DNA of 64,000 bases, from the NCBI RefSeq assembly GCF_048403405.1, contig NZ_CP183129.1; one strand, written 5' to 3'. A program made the position numbers and the translations under genes. Numbering within the stretch: position 1 is the first letter of the stretch; each line of letters opens with the position of its first letter. Positions 1-32,920 of the stretch are shown in pieces. The stretch is from Escherichia coli (GTDB taxonomy: Bacteria; Pseudomonadota; Gammaproteobacteria; Enterobacterales; Enterobacteriaceae). The notes under the pieces were generated by a model that saw nothing but the letters and a program-made list of their open reading frames with translations, did not search any database and had not been told where the DNA came from.

Positions 1-264
1 GAAGCTATTTATGGCAATTATCAAAATAATGTTTTAGCCAATATTATTTTCGTCGACTTCCAGCAACAAGGTGCAAGAGGACTGACGAACGCGCCTGATG
101 AAGATCCGGACGATTTAAGCACGGGATATTACGGTTCAGCGTACCGGTCACCGGAAAACTGGACGACGGCACTGCGAAGCAGTCATTTCAGCGCGGCAGC
201 CCGTCGGGGGATTATTTCTGACAGGTTTGTAGAAGCAATTTTGCAGTTTTGGCGCGAAAGGTGA
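1..264 (+). CDS. 3' end of an unidentified protein (C-terminal 87 codons; gene starts upstream of window)
   Basis: Open frame 1 runs from window edge to TGA at 262-264; convergent with the HNH gene. No family recognised. Confidence 0.3.
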   Translation, partial: EAIYGNYQNNVLANIIFVDFQQQGARGLTNAPDEDPDDLSTGYYGSAYRSPENWTTALRSSHFSAAARRGIISDRFVEAILQFWRER

Positions 265-271
265 GCGTTCA

Positions 272-922
272 TTAATTTGATTTATTTGCATCCATCAACG
301 CTTTTAACTGCTCCGGCGAAAACGGTGGTTTGCGTCGGTGCAGCATCGCATGGCAATTAGGGCACACAGGAAGCAAATCATTAACTGGATCCAGCTGGTA
401 ATCCTCTTTAATGGCTGAAAGCGGCACCAGGTGATGCATATGGATAAAGCCTTCTGCGATATCACCATAGATCTTCACCAGATCAACGCCGCATACGTTG
501 CACTGGCATCCATGATGTTCGACCGCTTTATCTCGGGCCTTTTTATCGCGTTCATAGCGGTTTACTGTCACCTTTATCGCCGCACCTTCAACGTATGTCT
601 CCTGCGACGGCAACTCATCCGGGAACAGAACGTCGGCTATGGTAGCTGCAGCGGCTTTATCCTGATGAATATGAAATCCCTGCTCTATGAGTAGCTTGAC
701 ACATTTAGATTTTATTCCGCCGGTGAAATCCGCAGGGGTAAATTGCGTCCCCGTCATCAATGTCGCTGCGATGCCAGCAATCGCCTTCGAGGGGTAACGT
801 CGGCCATGATATTCAATCTCATACAACCGTGCAGGCTGGAACTGATGAGTTTCTCCCGCATCCCATAAATGGATAGCTTCGATGATATACCGCCGCGGAA
901 GATGGTCGGGAAGTTTATTCAT
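272..922 (-). CDS. HNH endonuclease family protein with unassigned N-terminal domain
   Basis: 216-aa ORF; C-terminal HNH-type motif (HMHHLVPLS ... CPNCHAMLH) with Cys/His pairs; N-terminal ~120 aa unassigned. Confidence 0.55.
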   Translation of the reverse strand: MNKLPDHLPRRYIIEAIHLWDAGETHQFQPARLYEIEYHGRRYPSKAIAGIAATLMTGTQFTPADFTGGIKSKCVKLLIEQGFHIHQDKAAAATIADVLFPDELPSQETYVEGAAIKVTVNRYERDKKARDKAVEHHGCQCNVCGVDLVKIYGDIAEGFIHMHHLVPLSAIKEDYQLDPVNDLLPVCPNCHAMLHRRKPPFSPEQLKALMDANKSN

Positions 923-1523
923 GGGGAATACCCTTATACGTTCTCAGAACAGGCAGCAAAAAAACAAATGAGATCAAGGTAATATATCTTCACTTGCAGG
1001 CTTGAACAGCAGAAAATTTGCGAGCATGATCGCAATTATTTCACTGCCAGGGATATCAATGGCTTCCAGTAAATCGCTACAGCAGGCAATTGCCAATATA
1101 AAAATCTGGCATAAGGGTGAACAGCGCGCACCGCATAAGCCATTGTTATTGCTATACGTATTAGCGGGATACCTGAATGGACATCCACGCCTTTTCGATT
1201 ATTGTAGTGGAACAGTCTACGAGGATGCAGTTCGAAGTGAGTAAGTAAAGGTTGCTGGAAACGATCAATGCCGCCATACAATGATATTTGAGGATCAACA
1301 ATGAGTAATAAAAACTACGAAAGTCACCGCAAAGCGATTGTTAGTAAAGGTATACCACCCGCTCTATTAAATAGGCTCACCAATTCGGATGTTCAGGTGA
1401 TCAATACCTTCTTAACACGAGTGAGCAAACTGGAACTATCTCAACAAGAGAAAGACTGGATCATAAAAATCATCTCTATGGTTTAGAGAATTTCAGAATT
1501 TCAAGTAAAGACAATGCTGCATA

Positions 1524-2471
1524 TCAAGCATTCAGGATGGCTAGCGCTAAGCTCCTAAACCTGGAGTAAACCTCATCCCATGTGATCTTTCGCTCTCCAT
1601 ACACCATTGGCGAAACAAACTGCTGATAGCGCATCTGGTAGAGAGGATTGTTCGCCAACTCATCCAGTCCCATTTTTAGCTCATCAACTGGAGACGCGCA
1701 AAACTGCGGGTACTGGTTGCCGTAACGCTGAATGTCCTGCTCAATAGTTTGTTGAACAAAATCAACGAGCAGACTCATATCAACATGACTCGTCTCAACA
1801 ATACAGTTTGTATCGTAGATATGACGTACCAGCGATGCATCATCAAATCGCTCAACATCTCGCACAACTGCCGCAGTACGACGTAACATCGCCACCAGCT
1901 TTTCAGCCTGTGTGCTAATGATAGTTGCGCATGGAAACGCTGAAACAATAGCCGCTTTTCCCGTGATCCCTGTTACCAGTGAATGAATATCCCGTAATTC
2001 AGAAGGCTCCAGTAACTTCGCTTCCATCAATTCCAGCCGGATAAAAGGACGCAAACAAGGTGCCTGCACCACTCGCTGTGGATAACGAACAGGTATGTCA
2101 TTATAACGATATTCATCCCGCGTCACTTTTGGGTAATCATCATCAAAATTGAACACACCCGATGAAGCTATTGCACTGGAAACTGCCTGAACAATTTCTT
2201 TACGGGTATTTTTTCGCTGAGTGCGGGAAAGTGCCTGAAATGCATCCTTAGGCACCAGTTTGATATCCACATCTTCCGACATGCGATTAAGTGCGACACC
2301 TGATTTTGCCAGAGCGGTTCCTCCGGCAAACACCAATTGATGAGTATCGAACACCAGAGGTTTAAGCAATTGCAAAAGCTCAACGATATAGTGATCTTTT
2401 TCCACAATTGCGACAGACTCAATACCAAGCGCGTCAGCCACTTCAGAAAAAAGAGTGGTTAAATCATCCAT
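1524..2471 (-). CDS. AbiEii/DUF1814-like nucleotidyltransferase (putative type IV toxin)
   Basis: 315-aa ORF; N-terminal nucleotidyltransferase-like motifs (FAGGTAL ... SEDVDI); 8-nt overlap with upstream small gene. Confidence 0.6.
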   Translation of the reverse strand: MDDLTTLFSEVADALGIESVAIVEKDHYIVELLQLLKPLVFDTHQLVFAGGTALAKSGVALNRMSEDVDIKLVPKDAFQALSRTQRKNTRKEIVQAVSSAIASSGVFNFDDDYPKVTRDEYRYNDIPVRYPQRVVQAPCLRPFIRLELMEAKLLEPSELRDIHSLVTGITGKAAIVSAFPCATIISTQAEKLVAMLRRTAAVVRDVERFDDASLVRHIYDTNCIVETSHVDMSLLVDFVQQTIEQDIQRYGNQYPQFCASPVDELKMGLDELANNPLYQMRYQQFVSPMVYGERKITWDEVYSRFRSLALAILNA

Positions 2472-2859
2472 TTAATCTGCTGTTCCCTACAGATAATACG
2501 CGTTTAAAACGCCGGGGGGTTTTTATCTCGGGTGAAGCTGGGATCTGCGTAGAAGTACCGCTATTGTATGCCTGCGTTGCGCCAGCAAAACGATAGCGTA
2601 CTTTCAGGCGTTCCAGCGTTTCGACAATCACCGCTGAAGAGCCTCCGGGAGCCGCTGGCATTACCTTGCCTGTAATACCGTTCCGCCGTGCTTTGGTATA
2701 CACGCCATAACCAACCTTCAACAGTTGCCCTTCCCTGACAAGCTCGCGCAATACCCGACCAACCTGATCGTAGCCTGCAATATCTTTAAAGTCGTCACGA
2801 GTGAATACGTAACGTTTAGAACGTTTCAGTCGTGACTGAATGCGTGCTTTTATCGTCAT
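2464..2859 (-). CDS. AbiEi-like antitoxin / small DNA-binding partner of the nucleotidyltransferase
   Basis: Basic small protein overlapping the downstream nucleotidyltransferase gene; start chosen at ATG 2859, preceded by AGGAGG; ORF track allows start up to 2928. Confidence 0.45.
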   Translation of the reverse strand: MTIKARIQSRLKRSKRYVFTRDDFKDIAGYDQVGRVLRELVREGQLLKVGYGVYTKARRNGITGKVMPAAPGGSSAVIVETLERLKVRYRFAGATQAYNSGTSTQIPASPEIKTPRRFKRVLSVGNSRLNG

Positions 2860-2928
2860 ATTCGCCTCCTGAGTCATTGCATAAAGAGTAGCAAAAATAC
2901 GACATTTTAGATAGCAAACATACGACAT

Positions 2929-3783
2929 TCATTTTGCTGATAACGCTGACGGAAAGTGCTTCGCCACGATATCATTCATCTTCTCCACCAGATCCAAACG
3001 TTTGAAAGTGATATGCCCACTGCCCTTCTGAAAGTAGCGAATAGTGAACAACTCATCTTCGAAAATCTGCTGATGCGGATTATCGCGCACAAAATCCATA
3101 AACCGGATGGAGATATCATGCCGATTATCGGGGATAGGTTTGCCATCCAGCAAATAGAGCATACGCTCCAGATCGGCAAGCTGATCTCGCCGCCAGCCCC
3201 AGTTCAGGCTGTAGCCCCATCTGTCATGATTCACCAGATTGTTAACGATAATCTTCTTACCGAAATAACAGGGATTATTGGTTTTGTAGTCCCAGCTCAA
3301 TCCCTTAAATACATTGATAACCCCACGTTCGAAAACGTCCTGCTTATTGTGGTGGAGTTGTTCAAAGGTACTCAGGATGTTGGCTTCGCTAATCGCCGGG
3401 AGATCGCCCTCCTCCAGGTTCTTTGCCCACTGACTGCGAGCTTCGGCATCCATCAGAGTCAACATACCGGACTTCAGCATGAGCTCGCGCCAGATGCTGC
3501 GGTCGATATTGCGGGTGATCACCGGCATCGCTTTGTCGGTTGGCTGCATCAGCCAGCAGTCAAAGGCATATCCATTCCGCATTGCCCAGGTTCCAGCCAC
3601 ATCACCGCCAATACTGGATGTCAGGCTGGAGATATCATGAAGTTTTTGGATTAACGTCGCTATCTGGTTCAGTGCACTATCACGACCCGTCACGATACGC
3701 TCAATGCTGGTCGAGCAAATTAGCTCGTTATGATCGGTTAAGACTTCAGCTTCTGTTTGCATAATCTTTTGTCCGTATAGCAA
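2929..3783 (-). CDS. hypothetical island protein (family not recognised)
   Basis: 284-aa ORF co-oriented with neighbouring island genes; the overlapping plus-strand ORF 2956..3654 looks like antisense noise. Confidence 0.4.
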   Translation of the reverse strand: MLYGQKIMQTEAEVLTDHNELICSTSIERIVTGRDSALNQIATLIQKLHDISSLTSSIGGDVAGTWAMRNGYAFDCWLMQPTDKAMPVITRNIDRSIWRELMLKSGMLTLMDAEARSQWAKNLEEGDLPAISEANILSTFEQLHHNKQDVFERGVINVFKGLSWDYKTNNPCYFGKKIIVNNLVNHDRWGYSLNWGWRRDQLADLERMLYLLDGKPIPDNRHDISIRFMDFVRDNPHQQIFEDELFTIRYFQKGSGHITFKRLDLVEKMNDIVAKHFPSALSAK

Positions 3784-3873
3784 ATGCGCCAGCCATGAAC
3801 AGCAGGCGCATTATGCAGGGAGTTATGAGAGAAGTAATTTTGGCGATGTAAATCGGGAAGGAGACTCGCAGAT

Positions 3874-4215
3874 TCACCGTGCCGTGGTGTTATGGCAGCG
3901 GCGCAGCAGACCTGTAGCCTGTCGCGCCCGTAAAATATCGACCGCACGAAGATAAGGCGTCTGTTCCTTCCAGCTAAATCCTTTCCTGTCGATACGGATC
4001 AATTCGTACTTCTCCACCAGAAAATTGACGGCATCGACCAGAGTGATCCCGGCGTCTATGTGTTCCTGAATCACCTTTTCATTGTTGAATGGTGTGTCAT
4101 TAAGATTCAGCCCGTAGTGCTGCTCCAGTAGGCGGGTCAGTAATGTTTGCCAGACCACGACGGGCGACAGGTATGACGTCGTCGCCCGCAGCGTCGTTGC
4201 AGGTATAATTTTCAT
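3874..4215 (-). CDS. CbtA/YkfI/YpjF-family toxin
   Basis: 113-aa ORF strongly resembling CbtA (…[22 protein letters not shown]…[25 protein letters not shown]…[11 protein letters not shown]). Confidence 0.8.
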
Positions 4216-4245
4216 AACGATGTTCCGTATTAAGGAGGTTAAAAC

Positions 4246-4581
4246 TCAGCGTTGAGCGGGATAAATAGCGATATAGACGTAACCACTGGAACCCAGCGTA
4301 TCGGCTTCGCAGGTTAGTTCTTTGGCGTATAGCGTGACGGTACGTTGTTGGCAGGGGGAGAGTTCACCGTCAGCCAGTTTCAGCTCCAGTTGTTTCATCA
4401 GCACCGGAAAAGCCTGGTCGATATGCAGCAGATCCGGGGAGCTGAATTTCCCGGTGATTGCGGCCCGATCAGCCAGGTAATGCAGGTTATGTCTTTCCTG
4501 TACCAGTCGAGCAGTGAAGCGTGGTGTTACGGTACAGGGAAGCCCCCATTCTTGTTGCATGACCTTGTCCTTTTGCAGCAT
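4246..4581 (-). CDS. CbeA/YfjZ/YafW-family antitoxin
   Basis: 111-aa ORF resembling CbeA (WGLPCTVTPRFTARLVQE…LHYLADRA…DQAFPVLMKQLELKL…TVTLYAKELTC); immediately upstream of the toxin. Exact start uncertain. Confidence 0.8.
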   Translation of the reverse strand: MLQKDKVMQQEWGLPCTVTPRFTARLVQERHNLHYLADRAAITGKFSSPDLLHIDQAFPVLMKQLELKLADGELSPCQQRTVTLYAKELTCEADTLGSSGYVYIAIYPAQR

Positions 4582-5054
4582 TACAACCAGCCCCGTTCGG
4601 CAAAAGAGAGGACATCCCCCGCCCCAATAATGAAATGATCCAGCACCCTCACTTTCACCAAATCCAGTGTCTTAACAATATTCGTTGTAATAAGTCTGTC
4701 GGCCCGACTGGGTTCCGTCACGCCGGAGGGATGGTTATGCGCAAGGATCACTGCTGCGGCATTGTGCCGTAGCGCAGATTTCACAATCTCACGGGGATGT
4801 ACTTCTGTGCTGTTAATCGTGCCGAGAAATAGCGTTTCGTGTTCCAGCAGTCGGTTCTGGTTATCGAGGTAGAGCACAACAAACATTTCCCGCTCCTGTC
4901 GTGCCAGATGCAGTTGCAGCCAGGTTTTTGTGGAGTCAGAGGAAAGAAAAGATTCGCCAGGATTGCGTTGATATTTCTCCAGCAGACGCATCGCACGGCG
5001 GATAACGCGTTGTTCACTCACCGAAAATACCGGTGTTAGCATCAGTTCAGACAT
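4581..5054 (-). CDS. RadC-like JAB/MPN-domain protein (YeeS/YkfG/YfjY family)
   Basis: 157-aa ORF with JAMM-like motif (HNHPSG) and RadC-like context upstream of the CbeA/CbtA pair. Confidence 0.75.
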   Translation of the reverse strand: MSELMLTPVFSVSEQRVIRRAMRLLEKYQRNPGESFLSSDSTKTWLQLHLARQEREMFVVLYLDNQNRLLEHETLFLGTINSTEVHPREIVKSALRHNAAAVILAHNHPSGVTEPSRADRLITTNIVKTLDLVKVRVLDHFIIGAGDVLSFAERGWL

Positions 5055-5083
5055 CGTATTTCCTTTACTATTAATAGCGTTGT

Positions 5084-5902
5084 TTATGAGGCCAGTTGCA
5101 ACATGTTTTCAGCCATCACCCACAGGGCGCGGTTGAGCCTGACATCGCCGTCGATGCCTTTAATGGCGCGGGTGTGCGTGCGACCACCTTTTGCCGTCCG
5201 CCCGTTTAAACCACCTTTGATCAGGTTCTCCTGAATACGCTGGTAGGTCGTCCACAGATCGCCGGATTCATCCTGCCAGCGGCGGGGAGCCAGCAACTGG
5301 GATTCCGTCACCGGCTGGTGCTCTTCGCCAAAGCGGTACGTCAGCGCCGCCTTTGCCAGCGCCTGTTGCGCAGGGGGAGGCAGCATCAGCGACTGCATGG
5401 CATCGCGTTTCTCTTCTACCTGGTCAAAAACACTGAGGACTTCATAAGCGCCTTCAATCACTTTCTCCACCACATTGCCTTTATGCGGTACCCGTACTTC
5501 ACCAAACGACTCGCCGCAGACCAGTCCGTTACAACAAACAGATCGAAACAGCCCTGGCAGCATCTGATAAGAACTGGAACCGTCATGGCTGTTGAGCAGA
5601 ATAATTTCCGGCACCTGGTTGCGATTGATCTTGTCTTCCCGGCGCAGACGCAGCATGTGTTTTGTATGCTCACGTTTACCCACATCACGAACACGGGTCT
5701 GGCAGGCAAAAAAAGGATGAAATCCTTCACGCTGGAGGTTATCGAGCAGGGTAATGGTGGGAATATAGGTATAGCGTTCGCTGCGTGATTCGTGCTTATT
5801 TTCCCCGAATACGCTGGGGACATACTGCATCAATTCGTCATGCGTTAATGGGCGATCGCGACGGATTTGATTTACGCGGCCAAAGCGGCTGGCTAAATTC
5901 AT
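5084..5902 (-). CDS. DUF932-like island protein (YfjQ-like)
   Basis: 272-aa ORF; size and context match the DUF932 genes of CP4-type islands; assignment from memory, not searched. Confidence 0.5.
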   Translation of the reverse strand: MNLASRFGRVNQIRRDRPLTHDELMQYVPSVFGENKHESRSERYTYIPTITLLDNLQREGFHPFFACQTRVRDVGKREHTKHMLRLRREDKINRNQVPEIILLNSHDGSSSYQMLPGLFRSVCCNGLVCGESFGEVRVPHKGNVVEKVIEGAYEVLSVFDQVEEKRDAMQSLMLPPPAQQALAKAALTYRFGEEHQPVTESQLLAPRRWQDESGDLWTTYQRIQENLIKGGLNGRTAKGGRTHTRAIKGIDGDVRLNRALWVMAENMLQLAS

Positions 5903-6089
5903 GGTAAATTCCTTAATAAAGAATATAAAAAACAGGGCCGCAGCTTCTGAAAAATTGCGGCTAATTTAATGCGTGATTAAAACGGACGGTAGTATAGGTG
6001 GGATAAAATAACAGGTACGTGCAGATATTAAATTACATTCCGGCAGTGCATATATGAAAGTGATATAGTGCTGAAATAATACATATCTG

Positions 6090-6121
6090 AATTCTCCCGG
6101 TGATAGTCACCGGGAGAATTT
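6090..6121 (-). terminator. perfect hairpin downstream of the 317-aa gene
   Basis: Inverted repeat tctcccggtga-ta-gtcaccgggaga just past the stop at 6139, followed by a moderately T-rich stretch on the minus strand. Confidence 0.4.
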
Positions 6122-6138
6122 AAGTTTGAAATGACACC

Positions 6139-7092
6139 TCAACCACGGGATAATCTTGTTTCTATTCCCTGAACTCTTTCGTCTATTAACCTTTCAATAA
6201 CAGATATTTTATCTGACTTGTAAAATTCAACCAGAAAATCCAGACGCTCTTTATGCGTATCACTGATAGACTCCCGTTCCCGTTTTTCAGAAAGTTTACG
6301 TCTGAAGTTTTTTTGGTAAAACGCTTTATTTATTTTCTTTACCGCTTTCTGCTGGAGATCATCATCCGCTGACCATAAATCCAGCATGGAATAAACGGCG
6401 TGATAGGTTTCTACACTATTAAGTGGTTCCGGGATCTGAACGGGGTCCAACTGGTTTCCTATATTACTACCGTGCTCTTTCTGGAATTTATTAATGTAAT
6501 TATAAGCCCATATACAGACTTCGTCATTATCCTCATTAAGCCAGCGTAATTTTATTCTCTTATGTTCATTTGCCCTCCAGAATACAAGCCTCTCATATAG
6601 CCACTGTCTCATCAACGGTGCCTGATTAGTCTCAATATTAATATAGTCCAGTAATGCAACGATGATTGAGTATCTTTCGCTATGGCTTGCAGGAGAATCT
6701 GTTATTCCGGCTTTCTGATACCAGTTAATGTTTAAATTTGTGCCCAGCTTTTCGTTAATTGACTCCATACAGCGGTAATCAAGACACATCACGCCCCATA
6801 GCCAGAACGTCGCTCTTTCATTTTCTTTTAACCAACTAAAATATTTCTCCGGCAGAAGCATCGTATTAATCGACAGCTCCAGTGAGCGAATAAAATTACT
6901 TCGCTGAATGGGATCGGGATACCCGGCCTCGAGGGCTGTATTAATAATTCTCTCCGAAAGAGATGTATCTGGATTGTTCCCGTCAAACGCAAATTGATTT
7001 GCTCCCTGAATGTTTTTCCTGATGTACCAGAAAAGAAACCTGCTGGTTCGGATGTCCTTCACTGCTATTGATGAGCGCACATTAACGGCCAT
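6139..7092 (-). CDS. hypothetical protein, AT-rich orphan
   Basis: 317-aa ORF in strongly AT-rich DNA; no family recognised. Confidence 0.4.
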   Translation of the reverse strand: MAVNVRSSIAVKDIRTSRFLFWYIRKNIQGANQFAFDGNNPDTSLSERIINTALEAGYPDPIQRSNFIRSLELSINTMLLPEKYFSWLKENERATFWLWGVMCLDYRCMESINEKLGTNLNINWYQKAGITDSPASHSERYSIIVALLDYINIETNQAPLMRQWLYERLVFWRANEHKRIKLRWLNEDNDEVCIWAYNYINKFQKEHGSNIGNQLDPVQIPEPLNSVETYHAVYSMLDLWSADDDLQQKAVKKINKAFYQKNFRRKLSEKRERESISDTHKERLDFLVEFYKSDKISVIERLIDERVQGIETRLSRG

Positions 7093-7683
7093 TGTTCTAC
7101 CTCGTCATCCTTGTTAAATCAGTCGAAATCAATAGCGTAATTATGACGTGTTTTCGAAGTAAAACCGTAGCAATAAATCAATAAAAGTGGAAAACACGTA
7201 GTAATATCGTATTATTCCATAGTAATAGAGTACCATTAACGTAGTTTTTTATTTATCACCATACTCACAGCTTCCGCCCGTAGAAAACGGCTGGATAGTC
7301 TTCAATTTTTCCACGTATAGCCCTGGTGGCTTTACGGGTGAAACCTCCCAGGATAACGAGTTGACATCTGGAAGATGTCATTCATGACCGCACTCATAGA
7401 TTAAATCAATGTATTAATTATAACTTAAGTGTAAAACTCTTTGTCTTCAAGAACAGATAATTAACTACGAACACCAGTAAATACCGGGCTTCTACTCTTT
7501 TTATCACCCTTTCTTTATGAATCAACATTGCCGGTATTAATATTATGTTTATCACTCATTCATTAGATTCAGCATATAGAGGGATGACACCAGAGACAGG
7601 GAAAAGTAATCCAGATCGGCATAGTTCAGTGAAAAGTTACTACAGCACTTATGGATATGTAACCAACCACAAGGAACTGAAGC

Positions 7684-8298
7684 ATGAAACTGAATGAACG
7701 ATATGGCAAGCCTAATGCACACTATATGAAACGTCTGGAAGAGATTACCCGTTATGCGATGGATGATTACGCCAGAATACTGGCTTTCAGAGTGGATTTA
7801 TTACTGCCAGTGGATAATAGCCATAAAGGGTATGACTCAGCGGTTATTACCCGTTTTATAGCCTCACTGAAAGCGCAGATAGCCGCATATTTACAACGGC
7901 GCAGGAGAGACGGTAAACGTGTTTATCCCTGTAAGCTGCGATATGCATGGGTAAGAGAATTTGGTGAACTGAATGGCAACAAGCATTATCACATGCTGTT
8001 GCTGGTTAATCGGGAAGTATTCAGAAACACCATGCTGAATACGGAGAATTCAGCGCAACCTCGCGGATTGCTGGTGGGAATGGTGGCGCGGGCATGGGCT
8101 GTGGCGCTTAGGCGTACCGGAGATATGGCAAATAAAGTCCCCTTTCATTTACCGGGCGTCTCTTATGAACTTGATCGCAGAAATGGCACAAATACGGACT
8201 TTTTCCGCAGCTACATATATCACATCAGTTATCTGGCGAAGGAGTACACCAAAAACCACGATGACGGTGAACGTAACTTTGGTTGTAGTCAGGGATAA
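7684..8298 (+). CDS. YagK/YfjJ-family (inovirus Gp2-like) protein
   Basis: 204-aa ORF resembling YfjJ/YagK island proteins; sits beside an AlpA-like gene as in CP4-type islands. Confidence 0.55.
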   Translation: MKLNERYGKPNAHYMKRLEEITRYAMDDYARILAFRVDLLLPVDNSHKGYDSAVITRFIASLKAQIAAYLQRRRRDGKRVYPCKLRYAWVREFGELNGNKHYHMLLLVNREVFRNTMLNTENSAQPRGLLVGMVARAWAVALRRTGDMANKVPFHLPGVSYELDRRNGTNTDFFRSYIYHISYLAKEYTKNHDDGERNFGCSQG

Positions 8299-8415
8299 GT
8301 AATTTATTACCGGAGAAGTGATTGTAATGGCGGAGTATGCAACATCATCTTAAATCAACGGGTTAGTGTTGCTGCTCCTGTCTTTTATCAACGTAAAGAC
8401 AGAAGGACAATCGTC

Positions 8416-8634
8416 ATGAGCAATCAACTGAATACCGATACTGACCTGATGAATGACAAACTGGTGACGATGGCATTTATTACCACGTTTACTGGCCTGA
8501 CTGACAAATGGTTTTATAAACTGATTAGTGAAGGCAAGTTTCCAAAGCCTATCAAACTGGGGCGTAGTTCCCGCTGGCGGGAAAGTGAAGTTAAACGCTG
8601 GCTGACGGAACGTATTGAAGAATCCCGCTATTAA
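8416..8634 (+). CDS. AlpA-family phage/island transcriptional regulator
   Basis: Small HTH protein (…FITTFTGLTDKWFYKLISEGKFPKPIKLGRSSRWRESEVKRWL…); true start may be the internal Met at ~8449. Confidence 0.65.
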   Translation: MSNQLNTDTDLMNDKLVTMAFITTFTGLTDKWFYKLISEGKFPKPIKLGRSSRWRESEVKRWLTERIEESRY

Positions 8635-8835
8635 TCCCCTGACACTATCTCTACACGCTTTACCCGTAACGCTATATCAGTGAGCGCCTGACAGGACCGT
8701 TGCGGTGCATCTATCGACGCGTAACTTCATTATACCCGGATGAAATACATTTCGTTTAACGTTGTCGAAAAATAATTAACCGGGGAATAGCCTCCTTATT
8801 TAGCAGGAATTCCCCGGATGCTGCTACAGGTAAAA

Positions 8836-9621
8836 TTAGGAATTAAATGTCCAGCTCCCCGTATCGGTCACAATATCAGCTTCAATGATACGGTCACACT
8901 TCATATATTTGAACGTAGCCACATCACCGAATTTATATTTGGCTGGCAGGGTTCTGTTACCGACGCTCTCCATTTTACAGTTCCCTCTGTTTACCCGAAT
9001 GGATTTCAGCACCACGTTGTCATCAGTGATAGTGAGCTGAATAACACCATATTTGGTATTCCAGCCTTCATTGCTGACGGAGCTGCCGAACTGAACTTTA
9101 AACGGTGGTGTCGTAGATTGCTGTGCCTGCTGTTGCTGAGAGGGATCAGGTTTATTAGCCTGCTGGCTACCAACGCCATTAATGCCATTCTGAAGGAGGC
9201 TTCTGGAAACCTTAATGGTACCCGGCTTGCATGATACTGTGCTGGTTTCCTGCCCCATTGCATTCATGACAGTGTAATAAGCATCACCTGTACCATCATA
9301 TTCTGAGTAATTGACTGCAACCGCGCCTTCGATATCTTCATTTTCTCCACGTAATGTGAAAGAAGCGGTTCCTGCTCCCGGATTAGCCGCCAGAATCTGT
9401 TTCGCTTCGCCGGAAGGAATATCCAGTTTAATAACAGAGCCGCTCTCTTCGGAGTCACCGCCAGGATTTTCAAAACTGATATAAACGGTATTGCTGACGT
9501 GGCTGAGTGTCATTTGCTCGCCGTTATCAAGCATACATTGCAGGTCATAGGCCCCGACTGCATAAGCAGGGTGGAATGCAAATAAAGATACAAACAATGC
9601 AGGTATAATGATTAGTTTCAT
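8836..9621 (-). CDS. secreted protein of unknown function
   Basis: 261-aa ORF with an N-terminal signal-peptide-like segment (MKLIIIPALFVSLFAFHPAYA) and a Gln-rich linker. Confidence 0.5.
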   Translation of the reverse strand: MKLIIIPALFVSLFAFHPAYAVGAYDLQCMLDNGEQMTLSHVSNTVYISFENPGGDSEESGSVIKLDIPSGEAKQILAANPGAGTASFTLRGENEDIEGAVAVNYSEYDGTGDAYYTVMNAMGQETSTVSCKPGTIKVSRSLLQNGINGVGSQQANKPDPSQQQQAQQSTTPPFKVQFGSSVSNEGWNTKYGVIQLTITDDNVVLKSIRVNRGNCKMESVGNRTLPAKYKFGDVATFKYMKCDRIIEADIVTDTGSWTFNS

Positions 9622-9632
9622 TAAGCACTTCC

Positions 9633-10645
9633 CTATCCAAAAAAATGGTCCCAGGCATTACCAGCCCACTCGATAAGTTTGTCTTTACCCTTACGGGTAA
9701 GCTCTTTGACAGGCTTTGGTAACGGAAAAGAATCAATAACGTCGTCGAGTATCCCGGAGATTACGCTGCCGAAGCCGTTTTTTGCTTCCGTCTTGACCTC
9801 TTCGGTTTTGAACTCATCCTTAAACTGCGAAGCCGTGCTACTTTTAGCCCGATCAGGCAAAGCCCGAATAATAGTCTCTACCAGACGAAGAATGTTGTAG
9901 CCCTCATCGGCGGAGACAGGTGTCACCGGATAGTGCGTAAAACCAAATCGTTCAGTAATGTAGGCTTCTTTCTTTTCGATGTTGATGCGCTGTGCAGGAG
10001 ATGGCTGATGCAGATGAGTATCCCACTCGCGGAATGGCTCAATTTTATCAACCTGGTTAAGGACGAATAAAACGCGCTCACCCCCACCAGCAGGGAGCAG
10101 AACATTGTTGTAGAAATGCTCATCCGCAGAAAAGGCCCGATCGTCACCTTTTATTACCCACAGGATGAGATCCAGGGAGGGAAGCAAATTGCGGTATAAA
10201 TCTTCATACTCCTATCCCGCCGGGCATTCTCACCGACACCAGGTATATCAATTATCTTCAGCGAATGTTTTCCGAAGCGTATATGCAATTCCTGAACTTC
10301 ACGAGTACATGCCTCAACGTCGCTAACTGCACAAACCTCCCCTTTAAACAGCGCATTACATACGCTGCTTTTCCCCGCGCCAGTTTTTCCCATGGCACCA
10401 ATCACGGGTTCATAGTCGATGGCTTCACTGATTTTGTTCAACAGCTTTTCCCGCAGTGGCTGAGGGAAAATATCAAGAATATCCCTGATGTCGGGTATGT
10501 GCGGTGTGCTATCACCTTTTTGCTCGTTGCTACCATTACGTTCTGGAAATATATTGCTCCACATTCCCAAAATCCCGCCTTCCCTTCTGGTGACGCCACT
10601 GGCATCAGTAATCATCCGGCCTTCGCCCTTTACCGGGTCATCCAT
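9633..10645 (-). pseudogene. YeeP/YfjP/YkfA-family GTPase, frameshifted
   Basis: G1 P-loop (GAMGKTGAGKSS) and G3 (DIPGVGE) in ORF 10154..10645; G4 (NQVDK) in overlapping ORF 9633..10187 in another frame. Confidence 0.6.
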
Positions 10646-14649: not shown

Positions 14650-15770
14650 TAATCAATCTGCCAACGAAGGAGATCGCTACGCGTAAAGCCCGTTTTACTG
14701 AGCATCAGATCATCGCTGTGATTAAGTCAGTTGAAGCCGGACGAACCGTTAAAAATGTCTGCCGGGAGGCCGGTATCTCTGAAGCCACCTACTACAACAG
14801 GAAGTCCAGATACGGCGGCATGGAAACTTCTGATATTAAAATCTTGAGGACGAAAACCGCCGTCTCAAACAGATGTTTGCTGACCTGAGTCTGGAGAGCC
14901 GAGCGCTGAAAGACGTTATCGAAAAAAAGCTTTAAAACCAGCCTTTAAGCGTGAGCTGGTCACTCATCTGATAACGACATTCGGACTCAGTATCAGTCAG
15001 GCCTGCCGGAGTCTGAACCTGAGCATAACGTTTACCGTTACCGCCCGGATACCACGCGTGATGAACCCGTTATTGCCGCCCTGTAGGCTGCGGCTGAGCG
15101 ATACCCACGATACGGCTTTCCGAAGCTTTTCCAGATTCTGCGACGGCAAGGATACTCGTGGAATCACAAAAGGCTCCACCGTATTTACTGTCTGCTGAAG
15201 CTGAATTTTCGCCGTAAGGGCCAGCAACGGCTGCCGGTACGCATCCCTCACCACTGGCTACGCCAGAAGCGCTGAACCAGTGATGGTCTGTCGATTTCAT
15301 GCATGATGCGCTGGCCTGTGGCCGTCATTTTCGCACGTTCAATGTTATTGATGACTTTAATCGTGAGGCGTTATCGATTGAAATCGATCTGAATCTGCCA
15401 TCTCTGCGGGTGGTCCGTGTACTTGACAGGATCGCGGCAAACCGCGCTTATCCGGTCATGCTGCGCATGGATAATGGTCCGGAATTTATCTCTCTGGCGC
15501 TGGCTGAATGGGCAGAGATACACGCAGTAAAACTGGAGTTCATCCAGCCGGGTAAGCCGACGCAGAACGCTTTCATTGAGCGTTTTAACAGGATATACCG
15601 TACAGAAATACTCGATTTTTATCTGTTCAGAACGCTGAATGAAGTACGGGAAATTACGGAGAAATGGTAATCAGAATATAACTGTGAACGCCCGCATGAA
15701 TCACTGAACAATATGACACCGGAGGAATACCGACTTCACAATTATTTGGCCGGGATCTCAAAAAATGCAT
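14650..15770 (+). mobile_element. degraded IS3-family insertion sequence (IS407-group-like), OrfA/OrfB remnants
   Basis: OrfA-like HTH/leucine-zipper frame (…EATYYNRKSRYGG…LEDENRRLKQMFADLSLE) and OrfB-like DDE-core frame (DNGPEFIS…FIQPGKPTQNAFIERFNR…ERPHESL) interrupted by several frameshifts; no intact N-terminus. Confidence 0.7.
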
Positions 15771-18177: not shown

Positions 18178-20775
18178 TTAAAAGAAGTCATCCTGAAATG
18201 CCAGGTCGATCGTGATCGGGTAGCGACCATACTCTGTTGCGCTGTCCGCATTCTCCAGGATAAGAACATACTTGTTTTTACGATTGAATGCCGTCCCCAT
18301 GAGTTTCATGGTTACATCGCGGGTGCGTTTACCCATATCTTCGTTATCACTGTCGAAGCATACTGTTTCCGTGCCGGAGACGACCTGGTTGTTTTCATCG
18401 ACGATAAAGATATTCAGCGTGCGCGGCTCATTTAAATCATTCACTGCCGAAGTCTGAATAAAACCAATTTTATCAATGCTGTTAACCAGTTTGATCACCT
18501 GATCCCGCGCAACGACGGGCACGGGCTGCCGCTGGGGTTGCTTCTCAGCCGCTTTCTTTTCAAGCGCGCGAATCTTCAACACAGGAACACACACTTCCTG
18601 CAGCATGGCTCCGCCATGAACGAAACGAGCACCCCCTACGAAGTGGAAACGCTGTACTCCTTTGGGTAACAGGAATTCACTTTCATCGCTTGCGCCTGCA
18701 GTATCAGCCAGTTTGCCGTGCCAGCAAAATTCACTTTCAGGCAGTTGATGGCCTACAATAAAACGCTTATTCGCTTCAATCGTGTCTTTGGCTTTACTTT
18801 CCAGCTTCGTTTTATCCTGCTCCACCAGCGCTTGTTGTTGGAACAGGAAGCCGTGATCGGCGGTAACAAAAATTCGGCTGGCATTAAATCGGCTACGCAG
18901 GCGTGAAACCAGATCTTTTAGCTCAGTGATTGCACTTCGGCAGGCCTCAAACGTTTTATCTTCCGTTGCAGCCTTATCACCCATGGCATCTATAGTGTCG
19001 TGCCAGATATAAACTACGGAAGCGTTGCGGATTTGCTCGTTCACTTCCTGGTTATTGGCGTTCTGCAAGTCCTTTGCTTTCAGCGCTACACCATTCACCT
19101 TCGCAAGAATAGCGGCTCTTTTTTCAAACCCGGAAGTGGACATCCCATCGGCGTATACTACACCAGAATTATCAGGAAGATAGCTCAACGACTCATGAGG
19201 CAACAGTGCGGCCATGCCCAGTTGGGTATAGCTTGGGAGCACTCCGGTCTGGGAGCGCAGCTCTGCACTGAAGTGCTTCTCATAGTTGATATGCCTGCCC
19301 AGCTCTTCCGCCACTTCGTAGCGCAATGCATCCGAGATCACGACAAAAACACGTTTGACCTGCGAGGTGTCAAACTGACGTTTAACATTCTCTTTATAGA
19401 AATTGCGCTGCAGGGGTATGCCGCTAAACTGCCAGGCCTGCATACGGTTTTCCGCTTCCAGCAGTTTGTTCCAGCCGCGACTTAGTTCAGTCAGATACCA
19501 ATTGCTGTATAACTCTTCGATGAATTTATCCAGTTCATGCAGGATCATCGCCCCTTTGCTGTGCACTGGTGCAGCATATTCATTGAACAAACGATAGGTC
19601 TGATCGAAGCGATAAATTTCGTCACAATAGGCCTTCCAGAACGCACCTGTATCGGGGAAATTAAACCCGTCGGTGTAACGGTTACGCAAATTCAGCAAGC
19701 GTTCTGCCTGACGAATAGCATTCCAGATAGAAAGATACTCTGGGCGGGTTTGGCTCCAGTATTTCGCACTGCGCTCTGAAACCAACGCTTTAAACGCATC
19801 TCTGTCCAGAGTGGTGCTCTCTTCCTGCAACTGTGTCACCAGACCACGGATAATAAGTTGCTCAATAGCCTCGAAGGTTTCACATTTTGCCAGTGTATAT
19901 GGTGAGCTGTAGTTGTAGTGTTCTTTTGGCTGGAGCGTCTGCTGCAAATCCTCTGCACAGTAATCGTATTCTACTTTATAGCGACGATCGTTGCGCCACG
20001 CCCCCATAAAGGCCAGTGACGAGGCCCGACCAGCCGCGGTAGCCAGCACATTTTTACTCAACCAGTCACGATGTGCTTCATCACCCTGCGCCCAGAGATC
20101 GGTACAGAACAGTTTCAGAAGCAGATTTTCCATTGAAGGAGATTCAGACTGGTATCCCAACTCAAGGCGAAGAATTTCCCAAAGTACCTCATCCAGGCCA
20201 AGCTTCGTCAGTACGGCGAAAGTGTTCTCGAGTGCGCTATCATCTTGCTGCCGTGCTGCGACAAACTGCTGAACCAAAGCAAATAGTATTTCTTTGGTTT
20301 CGAAGGTACTGGCCCCGACCACCACCGCCAGCATTTTCTTATCGAGAGAGTTTTCCGTTTCGCGCTCGGTGACCCATCCCTTCAGGATCTGAGTTCGCTT
20401 AACGGTAAAGAAGGCTTTGCGAAGCTGAATATGTTCGCGTAAACCGAGTTGCGGGATACCCAGAGAATTCAGGGTGATCGCCGCATAATCAGCGTGGAAT
20501 TCGGTACTATAGAGGCGGATATCCAGCAACCAGTCCTGCTCGCGAGCAGGAACCTCACAGGTGAAATAGAGTAAAAATTTCTGCTCAGGCTCGTCGATTT
20601 CGAGTCGTTTTTTTGTTGCGAGCACAGAAACGCCACGCATATCCAGCAGCGTGACATTGTCGAGATCCAGCTCATTAATTGAATCAGTGAAGCGTTGTTC
20701 CGGGTCGTGCCAGAAGACGATACGGTTGTCGGTAAACTTCTGACGAAGCCCTGATTCCAGTTCTTTAAATTGCAT
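18178..20775 (-). CDS. pglZ: BREX PglZ (alkaline-phosphatase-superfamily protein)
   Basis: 865-aa ORF with PglZ-type motifs (…VTADHGF…); positioned between the methyltransferase and brxL. Confidence 0.85.
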   Translation of the reverse strand: MQFKELESGLRQKFTDNRIVFWHDPEQRFTDSINELDLDNVTLLDMRGVSVLATKKRLEIDEPEQKFLLYFTCEVPAREQDWLLDIRLYSTEFHADYAAITLNSLGIPQLGLREHIQLRKAFFTVKRTQILKGWVTERETENSLDKKMLAVVVGASTFETKEILFALVQQFVAARQQDDSALENTFAVLTKLGLDEVLWEILRLELGYQSESPSMENLLLKLFCTDLWAQGDEAHRDWLSKNVLATAAGRASSLAFMGAWRNDRRYKVEYDYCAEDLQQTLQPKEHYNYSSPYTLAKCETFEAIEQLIIRGLVTQLQEESTTLDRDAFKALVSERSAKYWSQTRPEYLSIWNAIRQAERLLNLRNRYTDGFNFPDTGAFWKAYCDEIYRFDQTYRLFNEYAAPVHSKGAMILHELDKFIEELYSNWYLTELSRGWNKLLEAENRMQAWQFSGIPLQRNFYKENVKRQFDTSQVKRVFVVISDALRYEVAEELGRHINYEKHFSAELRSQTGVLPSYTQLGMAALLPHESLSYLPDNSGVVYADGMSTSGFEKRAAILAKVNGVALKAKDLQNANNQEVNEQIRNASVVYIWHDTIDAMGDKAATEDKTFEACRSAITELKDLVSRLRSRFNASRIFVTADHGFLFQQQALVEQDKTKLESKAKDTIEANKRFIVGHQLPESEFCWHGKLADTAGASDESEFLLPKGVQRFHFVGGARFVHGGAMLQEVCVPVLKIRALEKKAAEKQPQRQPVPVVARDQVIKLVNSIDKIGFIQTSAVNDLNEPRTLNIFIVDENNQVVSGTETVCFDSDNEDMGKRTRDVTMKLMGTAFNRKNKYVLILENADSATEYGRYPITIDLAFQDDFF

Positions 20776-21344
20776 TATTGATTCTCAAACCATTCGACCA
20801 GTTCATGAGCGCTAGGGCAAGCAGGGTGTCTGGCAGAACTCTGAATATCAAAACCGTGATGCGTTACCATTCTCCTGGCAAATGCGGTTTTAGAACTTCC
20901 CGGTCCCTGTTTTCCTAGCTCGCGTGAAATTACTTTTAAACGATCCCATGGCATTTCAGTTGTAGCTTCAGGTAACTCTTCATTAAATGTGTCTACTTTA
21001 AGCCATTTTTTCATTGCCTCTGAATCGGCAAGAAACCAAGCCTCAACTGCTTTGACTGCGATAAACGAGATGTCGACATCTTGATGGGCAATTCGGGCCC
21101 GTACATCAGCAACAGATGCCGCATCTTCCAGGTCGGTCAGAATACAGATCCGTTCAGCACCTACATTTCTGAGCCTAGCAACGAAATTATCAACATACTT
21201 CGGTAACAGGTTACCACCACCTTTGGCATCAATAACGGGAGTTACCAATTCAAAATTATTCGTGCGCAGAAATGCAATGAACGCTGGTGAATTCACGATG
21301 ATTGACTCAGTATCACCTTCAACGATAAAACCTATTTTTACCAT
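20775..21344 (-). CDS. small TOPRIM-like protein (DUF4276-like) embedded in the BREX operon
   Basis: 189 aa; N-terminal IGFIVEGDTE and downstream ICILTDLED resemble TOPRIM Glu and DxD motifs; start overlaps the ATPase stop by 7 nt and its stop overlaps the pglZ start (TAATG). Confidence 0.6.
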   Translation of the reverse strand: MVKIGFIVEGDTESIIVNSPAFIAFLRTNNFELVTPVIDAKGGGNLLPKYVDNFVARLRNVGAERICILTDLEDAASVADVRARIAHQDVDISFIAVKAVEAWFLADSEAMKKWLKVDTFNEELPEATTEMPWDRLKVISRELGKQGPGSSKTAFARRMVTHHGFDIQSSARHPACPSAHELVEWFENQ

Positions 21345-22459
21345 GGCAAACCGCCATCAAACATATTCATCAGCCACGCGGTATCCAGTGGGATTTCCTT
21401 TTTATCAACCCCCGCATCTGAAGCATGCATCAGCTGAGTTTTCCCCTCTTTTTTACTAACAAACCACAGTTCGTCTGGTTCCAGATTGCGAACAATAGAT
21501 TCACTATGGGTAGTAATAACAATTGGATGATTCAAAGAGGCATTTTCACGCATCAATTGCACAAGTTCCCCAATGGCTTTTGGGTGAATACCGCGTTCAG
21601 GCTCTTCAATAATGGTCATCCCCGTTTGCTGTGCTCGACTCAAGATGGCCGTCATAATACAAAGCGTGAAGATGGTGCCGTCAGAGATAAGATGGGCAGG
21701 AAAGCGGGCACGAGTTCCCTGTTCTTTAAAGGTCAATACCGTTGAGCCATCCAATTTTTGTTTCTCGGTCGATACATTTTCCATCCCCGGAACGATGAGT
21801 TCCATCCACTCCAGTATTTGCTCTTTAAATTCGCTATTCGATTCGAGAGCAGCAAGCACAGAAGCAATGTTTCGACCATGACTGTCCAGAAATGTCGAGT
21901 CAGTTTTGGCGCTATCGGGCTCTTTAGCACGTAACGGATCGATGCGAAAAACAACAATATTGGTCAAAAAAGCGTACAGTTCACTTTTCCCCAGTAGCAT
22001 TAGTGCCGTCATATCTGACGAGTAGTTAGGGATTAAAGTCGCAGGGATTTCATCACTATCGCTCAGGCGAATCATAAGAGTATCAGGGTGCTTACGATCA
22101 ATATAAATATCTCCATCAATGACCAACTTTTCAGTGATTGTTGGTTTTTTATCCATGTTTTTGATCGTCAAGTCATAGGTAAACTGTTTTCCTCCCAGCT
22201 CAATTTGAAGGTGCAGTGAAGCCGTAGTCCGATTTTCCTTACGCAGCTTGTAGCAATGAATCTGCTGAAAACCGCCAAAATCACGGATTGCTTGTGTCGC
22301 CCCGGTTTTCACTACGGCACCAAAAAAAGCCAATGCATCGGTAATGTTACTTTTGCCCGCACCATTGGCTCCAGCAAAGGTGATAAATGGTGGGCTTTCC
22401 ACAAGGGAAAGCTCCGCGATGCTCTTGTAGCCTTTAATAATCAGGGGATGTTGATCCAT
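21338..22459 (-). CDS. ABC-type ATPase (AAA_15/AAA_21-like) embedded in the BREX operon
   Basis: 373 aa; Walker A (GANGAGKSN) near the N-terminus and C-terminal ABC-like H-loop region (IVITTHSESIV); start overlaps the pglX stop (TAATG). Confidence 0.7.
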   Translation of the reverse strand: MDQHPLIIKGYKSIAELSLVESPPFITFAGANGAGKSNITDALAFFGAVVKTGATQAIRDFGGFQQIHCYKLRKENRTTASLHLQIELGGKQFTYDLTIKNMDKKPTITEKLVIDGDIYIDRKHPDTLMIRLSDSDEIPATLIPNYSSDMTALMLLGKSELYAFLTNIVVFRIDPLRAKEPDSAKTDSTFLDSHGRNIASVLAALESNSEFKEQILEWMELIVPGMENVSTEKQKLDGSTVLTFKEQGTRARFPAHLISDGTIFTLCIMTAILSRAQQTGMTIIEEPERGIHPKAIGELVQLMRENASLNHPIVITTHSESIVRNLEPDELWFVSKKEGKTQLMHASDAGVDKKEIPLDTAWLMNMFDGGLPW

Positions 22460-31574: not shown

Positions 31575-32920
31575 TCACCTTCTCAGCGGATTGTTAACCT
31601 TTGCATATTCAAACGGACTGATACCCTTCTCTCTGTTCGCATCCAGAAAATCCGCCCACCACTGTAACATCAGCTTGCGCTCATCCAGATGTTCCGCTTT
31701 ATGGATATACGCCGCCCTCACCGAATTGCGTTCCATATGGCTCATCTGCCTTTCCACCGCATCCTTCGACCATAGCCCTGACTCAATTAACGAACTACAG
31801 ACCATTGTGCGGAAGCCGTGGCCGCAAACTTCAACCTTAGTGTCATAACCCATCACCCGTAGTGCACTGTTTACCGTGTTCTCGCTCATGGGCTTACGCG
31901 GATCATGATCGCCAATAAAAATCAGCTCATGTTCGCCACAGAACTGTTTTATCTGCTTCAGGGTCGCTAGCGCCTGCTTTGAAAGCGGCACTAGATGAGG
32001 TGTACGCATCTTTGATCCTCGCTGAGAATGTTTCACGCCGGGAATAGGCTCTCGCTCAGGCGGGATGGTCCACATCGACGTGTCGAAATCTATCTCCGAC
32101 CAGCGAGCAAAACGCAGCTCACTGGATCGAATAAAGATAAGCAGAGTAAGTTCAGTTGCCCAGCGGGTTAGTGGCCTGCCGGTGTATTCATCGATTTTCT
32201 GGAGTAATTCCGGGATACGCTTTAACTCCAGCGCCGGACGATGCTGTCGATTACTGGAAGCAACCGCCCCCGCCATCTCTTGCGCCGGATTGTAATCAAT
32301 TAACCCGCTTTGCACTGCATAACGCATGATGGCCGTAGTGCGCTGTTGAAGGCGGGAAGCCACTTCAAGACGTCCGGACTTCTCCACGGCTTTAATAGGA
32401 ATTAACAGATCGCGGGTGCCTAGTTCAGCAATGTTGCGAGTACCAATTGCCGGGAAGATATTCTCCTCCAAGCTCTTTTTAGACGATTAGCATGATATTC
32501 CGACCATTTTTGGTTGGTCACGAGCCACTATTTGGCAACCTTCTCGAAAGTAATAATCTCTTTCGCCTGCTCTTCTTTCACAGCACGTTTATGCTCACGA
32601 GGATCGATACCAGCAGCTACCAGCTTTCTGGCCTCTTCCCTTTTCTTCCGCGCATCCGCCAGCGAAACATCCGGGTAAACGCCGAACGCCATCAAATGTT
32701 GTTTACCACCAGAACGGAAACGAAATCACCAATACTTTGAACCGCCAGGTTTTACAAGTAAAGACATGCCGTCGCCGTCAACAAGTGAATACTCTTTCTC
32801 CTCTGACTTCACAGAACGAACTTTAGTATCCGTTAGGGCAATAATGGTCTTCCTTCCATTGGTATCTCGTGAGTATACAAGCAATATCGAATCGGCAAAT
32901 ATGCTTATTAGTATACTCAC
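31575..32920 (-). pseudogene. P4-type tyrosine integrase (intB-like), disrupted
   Basis: N-terminal arm-binding fragment (ORF 32726..32920, …LTDTKVRSVK…GGSKYW) ends at an in-frame TGA; catalytic remainder (ORF 31575..32471) is in a different frame. Confidence 0.7.

Follow-up and report, generated by a model that had tools for sequence, protein, structure and literature searches.

The stretch of Escherichia coli DNA analysed here (the window; 64,000 nt of contig NZ_CP183129.1) carries near its start a block of seven same-strand genes, DUF932-RadC-CbeA-CbtA-DUF4942-AbiEi-AbiEii, in which two toxin-antitoxin (TA) pairs are embedded. A preliminary description had proposed an AbiEii-like nucleotidyltransferase with an overlapping small partner (1524-2859) and a CbeA/CbtA pair preceded by a RadC-like gene (3874-5054), stacked at the distal end of a genomic island. 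Both pairs are real: the five genes lie on the minus strand where they had been placed, and the profiles of DUF1814/AbiEii, DUF6088 (AbiEi), CbtA, CbeA and RadC all matched above threshold. The functional part of that description, in which such modules stabilise islands and can act in abortive infection, is borne out only partly. What did not stand is their treatment as one stacked content, because the two pairs belong to unrelated layers, a RadC-CbeA-CbtA backbone and a swappable AbiE cargo. The families concerned are known and already named in RefSeq, their architecture has already been described, and such content is ordinary for islands of this kind.

The toxin of the first pair matches PF08843 over profile positions 7-237 of 238 (E 6.8e-30, 105.2 bits versus a cut-off of 22.5) and the PADLOC AbiEii model with an E-value of 1.1e-126, whereas its partner matches the PADLOC AbiEi model (E 2.9e-53) and, less strongly, Pfam DUF6088 (E 3.9e-7, 30.4 bits versus a cut-off of 25). 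A further Pfam family, AbiEi_4, scored 24.2 bits on the partner, marginally below its cut-off of 25. The antitoxin gene is upstream and overlaps the toxin gene on the same strand by 8 nt (ATGGATGA, 2464-2471), and an AGGAGG ribosome-binding site lies 6 nt 5' of the abiEi ATG. When AbiEii was aligned with 6 homologues of 44-60% identity, G50 G51, R63, S65, D67, D69, K191, R197/R198 and R216-H217-x-Y219-D220 were invariant; the K191 stretch reads K191-L-V-A-M-L-R197-R198 and motif IV R216-H-I-Y-D220. These residues correspond to those of motifs I-IV of Streptococcus agalactiae AbiEii, mutations in which abolish toxicity and GTP binding, the family motifs being given as hG[G/S]...R..DhD, KLxAxxxR and +DxxD (PMC3985639). 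We thus judge the catalytic motifs to be present, and the last Asp of motif IV, D220, is taken to be the equivalent of D192 and is kept. The predicted phospho-acceptor S65, two residues before the DxD, is unchanged in all the homologues aligned; in relatives this role falls to T65 in AbiEii and S78 in MenT3, and 'SanaT S65' has been named as the T65 counterpart (preprint 10.64898/2026.01.19.700257).

Table 1. Features of the region and of the surrounding island, in positions of the window.
Feature	Position	Strand	Evidence
abiEii, SanaT-like DUF1814 nucleotidyltransferase toxin, 315 aa	1524-2471	-	Pfam, PADLOC
abiEi, DUF6088, SanaA-like short antitoxin, 131 aa, N-terminal winged helix	2464-2859	-	PADLOC, Pfam, AlphaFold2 (AF2) model
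Two 18-nt boxes, AATGTCGTAT(G/T)TTTGCTA, direct orientation, 23 bp start to start; candidate AbiEi operator	2889-2929	-	repeat search
Variable cassette segment (61-aa open reading frame (ORF), abiEii, abiEi, boxes)	1203-2924	.	blastn versus SCU-171 island
DUF4942 protein, 277 aa; last backbone gene, fixed edge of the variable slot	2929-3762	-	PF13708 E 1.9e-70
cbtA-family toxin, 113 aa	3874-4215	-	PF06755 E 4.1e-57
cbeA/yeeU-family antitoxin, 111 aa	4246-4581	-	PF06154 E 1.2e-46
RadC-like JAB domain protein, 157 aa	4581-5054	-	PF04002 E 2.5e-44
DUF932 protein, first gene of the same-strand backbone block	5084-5902	-	PF06067 E 4.4e-53
61-aa ORF convergent with abiEii	1301-1486	+	phrog_25874 E 3.7e-47
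5' fragment of phosphorothioate-DNA-binding restriction endonuclease gene, ends at cassette boundary	1059-1208	+	PGAP pseudogene
HNH endonuclease, outer island edge	272-922	-	PF01844 21.9 bits versus cut-off 21.4
GTPase-family gene	~9633-10645	-	frameshifted pseudogene in identical RefSeq genome
P4-type integrase beside leuX	~31576-32843	-	frameshifted pseudogene in identical RefSeq genome

The antitoxin is a short form. The full two-domain architecture (about 195 aa, with a COG5340 C-terminal domain) was not found in its 131 residues, which cover positions 2-100 of the 172 of the DUF6088 profile, and in this respect it is like SanaA, of 136 aa (preprint 10.64898/2026.01.19.700257). Its AF2 model, built from a shallow six-sequence alignment, has a predicted local distance difference test (pLDDT) score of 83, and the top match of this model among all Protein Data Bank (PDB) chains is S. 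agalactiae AbiEi, 6Y8Q, although the match is modest (E 7.8e-3, probability 0.99, template-modelling score 0.40). At the sequence level, a phmmer search of the PDB returned no match for AbiEii, AbiEi or CbtA, CbeA alone being matched, and NCBIfam holds no model for AbiEii, DUF6088, CbtA, CbeA or DUF4942. For comparison we used the pair on the plasmid of Shewanella sp. ANA-3 (WP_011711497.1 and WP_011711498.1), which is probably the published SanaTA (Sberro et al. 2013, as described in PMC3985639, PMC8230891 and the preprint), since its protein lengths and its S65 match the description in the preprint. On the strength of this comparison, the window pair is regarded as a SanaTA-type member of the AbiE family.

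Upstream of abiEi, box 1 (AATGTCGTATGTTTGCTA, 2929-2912) begins at the DUF4942 stop codon and box 2 (AATGTCGTATTTTTGCTA, 2906-2889) ends 29 nt before the abiEi ATG. The box pattern has exactly 2 matches in the 64-kb window, against 0.08 expected. In Shewanella, Acinetobacter and Aeromonas, DUF6088 genes are likewise preceded by the core of the pattern, TG(T/C)CGTAT, which stands there twice in direct orientation with a spacing of exactly 23 bp; at two further loci it occurs once. The proteins encoded at these loci share only 44-60% identity. We take the tandem direct boxes as the candidate AbiEi operator. The operator known in the AbiE family is built otherwise, S. agalactiae AbiEi binding two 23-bp inverted repeats (PMC3985639); no inverted repeats are present between 2840 and 2960, where the two direct boxes stand instead. 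Conceivably, regulation by the short SanaA-type antitoxins works through direct repeats in tandem and differs in mode from that of canonical AbiEi with its inverted repeats. No acceptable -35/-10 pair for abiE was seen near the boxes on manual inspection and, with no convincing sigma-70 promoter beside them, abiE may be read through from upstream, possibly from DUF4942.

The second pair is equally clear. CbtA matches PF06755 with 191.5 bits (cut-off 25; profile positions 1-110 of 112) and is 58% identical to K-12 CbtA, with the FtsZ-contact residue F65 conserved in the alignment. At position 15, where K-12 CbtA has the MreB-binding determinant R15, the window toxin has Y. This residue is not family-defining, however, because YpjF and YkfI carry C at this position and still block elongation (PMC5624674). 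CbeA scores 157.8 bits against PF06154 (cut-off 27) and matches the PDB entries 2INW (E 5.6e-45) and 2H28 (YeeU; E 2.3e-42); its gene lies directly upstream of cbtA with a gap of 30 nt. The RadC-like protein scores 155.5 bits against TIGR00608 (cut-off 133.85), keeps an intact HxHx7Sx2D metal-site motif in HNHPSGVTEPSRAD and is 57% identical to K-12 YeeS, and the stop codon of its gene overlaps the cbeA ATG by 1 nt. CbtA and CbeA have no matching model in PADLOC. A promoter-like site was noted near DUF932 (5951-5922, minus strand), in a scan that as a whole did no better than chance.

What separates the two layers is the comparison with the SCU-171 island. By blastn, this island is 97.7% identical to the window over 2925-9000, a segment that includes DUF4942, CbtA, CbeA, RadC, DUF932 and what lies beyond; the homology breaks 4 nt beyond the DUF4942 stop codon and resumes only at 946-1202. 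AbiE is absent from SCU-171, where the slot, 1.7 kb in the window, amounts to 5.7 kb and holds a CopG + RelE/ParE pair, a helix-turn-helix protein, a 678-aa protein and a complete restriction gene. Elsewhere the cargo differs again. In E2348/69 (locus 4972-5000), ATCC 43886 and JA0072 the slot is filled by McrBC, DUF4942 being flanked there by hsdM and not by cbtA, and in CFSAN051542 by RhuM. Since an island without AbiE keeps the backbone at 97.7% identity and since the cargo of the slot differs elsewhere, RadC-CbeA-CbtA(-DUF4942) is the backbone of the element and the AbiE pair is only exchangeable cargo. In the three McrBC islands the DUF4942 stop codon is still followed by box 1 and the opening bases of box 2, their homology to the window ending at 2899; we read this remnant as a scar that an AbiE cassette left on being lost, which is direct evidence of turnover. 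At the other edge of the slot, the phosphorothioate-DNA restriction gene is intact (873 nt) in SCU-171, E2348/69, ATCC 43886 and JA0072 and reduced to 150 nt in the window, homology stopping at 1202.

The AbiE cassette is at least 99.4% identical (99.4-100%) in 133 complete E. coli genomes from varied hosts, out of 5,426, and in every full-length case among the matches listed it adjoins DUF4942. A translated search also found full-length relatives with 41-60% identity on plasmids of Escherichia, Acinetobacter, Vibrio, Aeromonas, Pseudoalteromonas, Shewanella and Legionella. The 61-aa ORF of the cassette was not found beside the AbiE pairs of the other hosts examined; it corresponds to WP_000066585.1 in the annotation of plasmid pFG92-1-109kb. 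On this E. coli plasmid, a 772-bp piece (window 939-1710; plasmid locus 3440-4211) lies between two copies of the insertion sequence IS1; on it are the fragment of the restriction gene, the 61-aa ORF and the 3'-terminal 186 nt of abiEii. The 3' end of abiEii by itself recurs on about 20 E. coli plasmids. IS1 thus seems to have picked up and disseminated part of the island end.

DUF4942, which the preliminary description did not mention, sits between the two TA pairs. A word-index search gave only relatives with more than 80% identity, and an exhaustive representative search was used instead, which, over representatives at 50% identity, gave 2,231 relatives with E <= 1e-3. In some homologues DUF4942 is fused to a DNA methyltransferase (a C-terminal S-adenosylmethionine methyltransferase). 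Its predicted model is confident (pLDDT 89.9, predicted template-modelling score 0.82), and fold searches with it gave generic helical matches only and no solved relative. In the literature searched the family comes up in only four papers, a single time in each. K-12 YeeW was considered as a DUF4942 remnant and rejected, as the two have no similarity. A diverged AbiE pair (toxin 60%, antitoxin 75% identical) lies directly after DUF4942 on E. coli C5 plasmid A (NZ_CP010123.1, 43-5117; a 214-kb IncF-type plasmid record), in the order CbtA-DUF5983-DUF957-DUF4942-DUF6088-AbiEii-integrase. That DUF4942 takes an active part in slot turnover or in control of neighbouring cargo, for instance as a sensor related to DNA modification, as an anti-restriction factor or as a landmark for recombination, seems improbable to us.

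The setting of the two pairs at a distal island end, as had been proposed, is borne out. The only tRNA gene found in the window, leuX, lies at 33043-33127 and marks the opposite end; from it follow the frameshifted P4-type integrase, a complete BREX-1 locus, an IS3 pseudogene, a GIY-YIG nuclease, a WYL protein, the frameshifted GTPase, an AlpA-type regulator and a protein of the inovirus Gp2 family. The seven-gene block comes next and, beyond abiEii, the phosphorothioate-DNA restriction gene fragment and the HNH endonuclease, which PADLOC models of type IV methyl-directed restriction enzymes match weakly (E 7.6e-6 and 2.5e-5). nanS is truncated by the far island junction, which lies some 150 bp outside the window, ahead of its first base. 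Bases 1-9 kb are 100% identical to several RefSeq E. coli genomes (TUM14771, MS 69-1, 4621 and others), and the locus is chromosomal. In these genomes PGAP names the genes "nucleotidyl transferase AbiEii/AbiGii toxin family protein", "DUF6088 family protein", "DUF4942 domain-containing protein", "TA system toxin CbtA family protein", "type IV toxin-antitoxin system YeeU family antitoxin" and "RadC family protein". The window contains no further copy of the 23 nt at the leuX 3' end (allowing up to 3 mismatches); in TUM14771, the 2.6 kb around the distal junction contain no significant match to an attR-like copy of it, and flanking direct repeats of 16-20 nt, as in tRNA-integrated defence elements, were not found. 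With the integrase a pseudogene and no second att repeat found, the island looks immobile, or fixed, rather than mobile.

Some further observations concern the remainder of the island and window. An ATPase of 373 aa and a 189-aa partner (20775-22459, minus strand) form an insertion in the BREX-1 locus, between pglX and pglZ; their matches are to A and B of the PADLOC candidate system HEC-01 (E 1.2e-181 and 5.2e-100), with weaker AriA and AbiLi matches, and their layout is the same as that of the ATPase-DUF4435 insertion in the Salmonella StySA BREX at leuX (PMC9009780). A 317-aa ORF (6139-7092, minus strand) between DUF932 and the inovirus-Gp2-family gene has no match in Pfam, NCBIfam, PADLOC or PHROGs, and the SCU-171 annotation has two shorter hypothetical genes at its place. 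Rfam families above gathering score are isrN (14934-15075, minus strand; within the IS3 pseudogene region of the island), Ysr276 (44099-44293, minus strand) and a magnesium riboswitch (61692-61807, minus strand); within 1-9000 there is none.

How might these genes work? The observations made here, from gene identities, motifs and gene overlap to the conserved boxes, the cassette boundaries and the turnover of slot cargo, lead us to read the region as two independent known modules that share a strand and occupy the distal end of a BREX-carrying, P4-like leuX island, itself immobilised, and we give this reading, including the workings that follow, a probability of roughly 0.8. For toxicity, phosphorylation switch, tRNA target, Lon dependence and phage defence alike, these workings are modelled on relatives. 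CbtA would bind FtsZ, through the conserved F65, and MreB, and in consequence block division and elongation, whereas CbeA would antagonise it through the shared cytoskeletal targets without acting on the toxin itself, in the type IV manner. The AbiE cassette is an autonomous 1.7-kb unit of the SanaTA type, inserted where DUF4942 ends, and the 8-nt overlap couples abiEi and abiEii in translation. AbiEi probably represses the operon through the two tandem 18-nt boxes and probably neutralises AbiEii by inducing its auto-phosphorylation on S65, by analogy with AbiEii T65, MenT3 S78 and the preprint's prediction for SanaT. If AbiEi were lost, for instance by Lon degradation during phage shut-off, as the case of SanaTA and T7 gp4.5 suggests (PMC3985639, PMC8230891), AbiEii, no longer phosphorylated, would extend tRNA 3' ends with added nucleotides, so that translation would stop and the infection be aborted, as modelled on MenT and AbiEii (PMC7450476, PMC10435456, preprint 10.64898/2026.01.19.700257).

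Several points weigh against this reading. The ANA-3 pair was identified as SanaTA by its protein lengths and S65, and not by locus tag. AbiEii motif IV is RHxYD and not +DxxD, His replacing the first Asp. At 131 aa, against 195 for canonical AbiEi, the antitoxin is without the latter's longer C-terminal part, and its boxes are direct repeats, as opposed to the inverted repeats bound by S. agalactiae AbiEi, so that regulation may differ on both counts. A sigma-70 consensus scan gave 6 sites, against 8.7 expected, none of them upstream of abiEi on its strand. As to defence, evidence, of a narrow kind, is on record for AbiE and SanaTA relatives (PMC3985639) and none was found for CbtA/CbeA in the literature searched; S. 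agalactiae AbiE protected against 0 of 32 coliphages in E. coli (preprint 10.64898/2026.01.19.700257) and the protection reported for SanaTA is limited to T7 lacking gene 4.5 (PMC3985639, PMC8230891).

Could both pairs instead be mainly addiction modules, loss of the island or of its distal segment leading to post-segregational growth arrest, with phage defence incidental or absent? Both adjoin the island end, and CbtA-family pairs lie near the attachment sites of K-12 cryptic prophages (PMC5371832); stabilisation by AbiE is on record in a report that the same paper cites, and the near-identity of the cassette in 133 complete genomes would suit such a role. Excision, however, is no live threat to this island: with the integrase frameshifted and no second att copy found, stabilisation against excision has little to act on. 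Moreover, the cargo of the slot has repeatedly been lost or exchanged, the AbiE scar in the McrBC islands included, so the cassette does not prevent its own loss, and CbeA-family antitoxin genes can be deleted in K-12 (PMC5371832). We consider an addiction role, as the main function of both pairs, unlikely but worth keeping in mind.

Silence would be another explanation, the modules being relics whose intact-looking genes are unexpressed or inactive in a decaying island. Decay is indeed evident nearby, where the integrase, the GTPase, the IS3 transposase and the phosphorothioate-DNA restriction gene are pseudogenes and nanS is truncated; no clear abiE promoter was found, and the K-12 CbtA homologues show low expression (PMC5371832). 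None of this decay extends to the seven genes from DUF932 to abiEii, however, which are all full-length ORFs with lengths that match those of their homologues and with no catalytic residue lost; ribosome-binding site and translational coupling are both preserved, and the cassette is near-identical across genomes of varied hosts and occurs on plasmids too. In our opinion such silence is improbable, and still less credence is due to a multi-component system in which DUF4942 would serve one of the pairs as a third functional component, such as a sensor or a regulator for AbiE or CbtA. DUF4942 directly precedes the DUF6088/AbiEii pair in two lineages as diverged as the window and C5 plasmid A, comes after CbtA in many islands, and shares its strand with its neighbours across short gaps. 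But these neighbours vary, and DUF4942 was therefore rejected as a third component of either pair: elsewhere it adjoins RelE/ParE-CopG, McrBC or RhuM, with hsdM at its flank in place of CbtA in islands of the E2348/69 type, whereas DUF4942 is missing beside the AbiE pairs on plasmids of Shewanella, Acinetobacter, Vibrio and Aeromonas and beside K-12 cbtA, YeeW being unrelated.

To content already known, the analysis adds the SanaTA-type assignment with an intact S65, the conserved tandem boxes and a cassette slot now defined as bounded by DUF4942. With its predicted S65 phospho-switch, the E. coli AbiE cassette, present in strain LY180, is a close and easily handled relative of the probable SanaTA and would make a convenient native-host system for the auto-phosphorylation model and for Lon-dependent triggering. 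The conserved boxes are a concrete operator candidate for the short-antitoxin subfamily. Likewise, the slot is a well-defined example of defence-cassette turnover, and the box scar can be used for tracing gains and losses of the cassette across Enterobacteriaceae.

Among known systems, the closest to the AbiE pair is the one on the ANA-3 plasmid, the probable SanaTA, with homology over the whole length of both proteins. The ANA-3 toxin has 313 aa (315 in the window), is 44% identical over 313 aa (E 6e-98) and contains an identical RMSEDVDIKL active-site stretch including S65; the antitoxins, of 131 aa in the window and 136 aa for the DUF6088 protein of ANA-3, are 45% identical over 124 aa (E 3e-38). 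In both, the antitoxin gene is upstream and overlaps the toxin gene, and two TG(T/C)CGTAT boxes 23 bp apart precede it. The two differ in that the window pair lies on an E. coli chromosomal island and the ANA-3 pair on a conjugative Shewanella plasmid beside a type I restriction-modification system, that the distance from boxes to start codon is about 22 nt shorter in the window, and that the TATACT -10 element of Shewanella is absent there. With the AbiEi/AbiEii of S. agalactiae and Lactococcus lactis the window pair shares the bicistronic overlapping operon (PMC3985639; preprint 10.64898/2026.01.19.700257). The AbiEii numbering is near-identical (G49/G50 versus G50/G51 in the window; R63, D67 and D69 the same; phospho-acceptor at 65), and the N-terminal winged helix of the antitoxin has 6Y8Q as its best PDB match. 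S. agalactiae AbiE is set apart by its 195-aa antitoxin, its operator and its motif IV, against 131 aa, a direct-repeat candidate operator and RHxYD in the window. MenA/MenT of Mycobacterium tuberculosis belongs to the same DUF1814 nucleotidyltransferase superfamily (PMC7450476, PMC10435456, PMC11375011), and the mechanism proposed here for the window AbiE is modelled on it, both for modification of the tRNA acceptor stem and for auto-phosphorylation induced by the antitoxin, although the sequence relation is distant and the antitoxins are of other types.

The backbone, in turn, has its counterparts in CbtA/CbeA (YeeV/YeeU) of CP4-44 and in the K-12 paralogues YpjF/YfjZ and YkfI/YafW, which belong to the same Pfam families (PMC5624674, PMC5371832). 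The order RadC-antitoxin-toxin near the end of a P4-like element is that of CP4-44, and the window CbeA matches the structures of both YeeU and YfjZ. Unlike CP4-44, the window has no DUF987 (YeeT) gene between RadC and CbeA, and its toxin gene is followed by DUF4942, whereas that of K-12 is followed by YeeW. At the level of the whole island, the closest parallel is provided by tRNA-integrated defence elements, which have BREX among their cargoes and carry "moron" modules of RadC/ArdB, CbtA/CbeA and DUF proteins opposite the integrase (2025 preprint PMC12458937). Both this architecture and the place of the CbtA family close to attachment sites in K-12 cryptic prophages (PMC5371832) agree with the backbone reading. 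The window copy is degraded by comparison, with its integrase pseudogene, no flanking direct repeat found and a truncated nanS, and its block lacks an ArdB-type gene. In other respects the likeness is close: a P4-type integrase stands beside a tRNA gene, a large defence payload (BREX-1) follows, a rolling-circle initiator-like gene (the inovirus Gp2 family) and an AlpA-type regulator are present, and a small-gene module of RadC, CbtA/CbeA and DUF proteins lies opposite the integrase.

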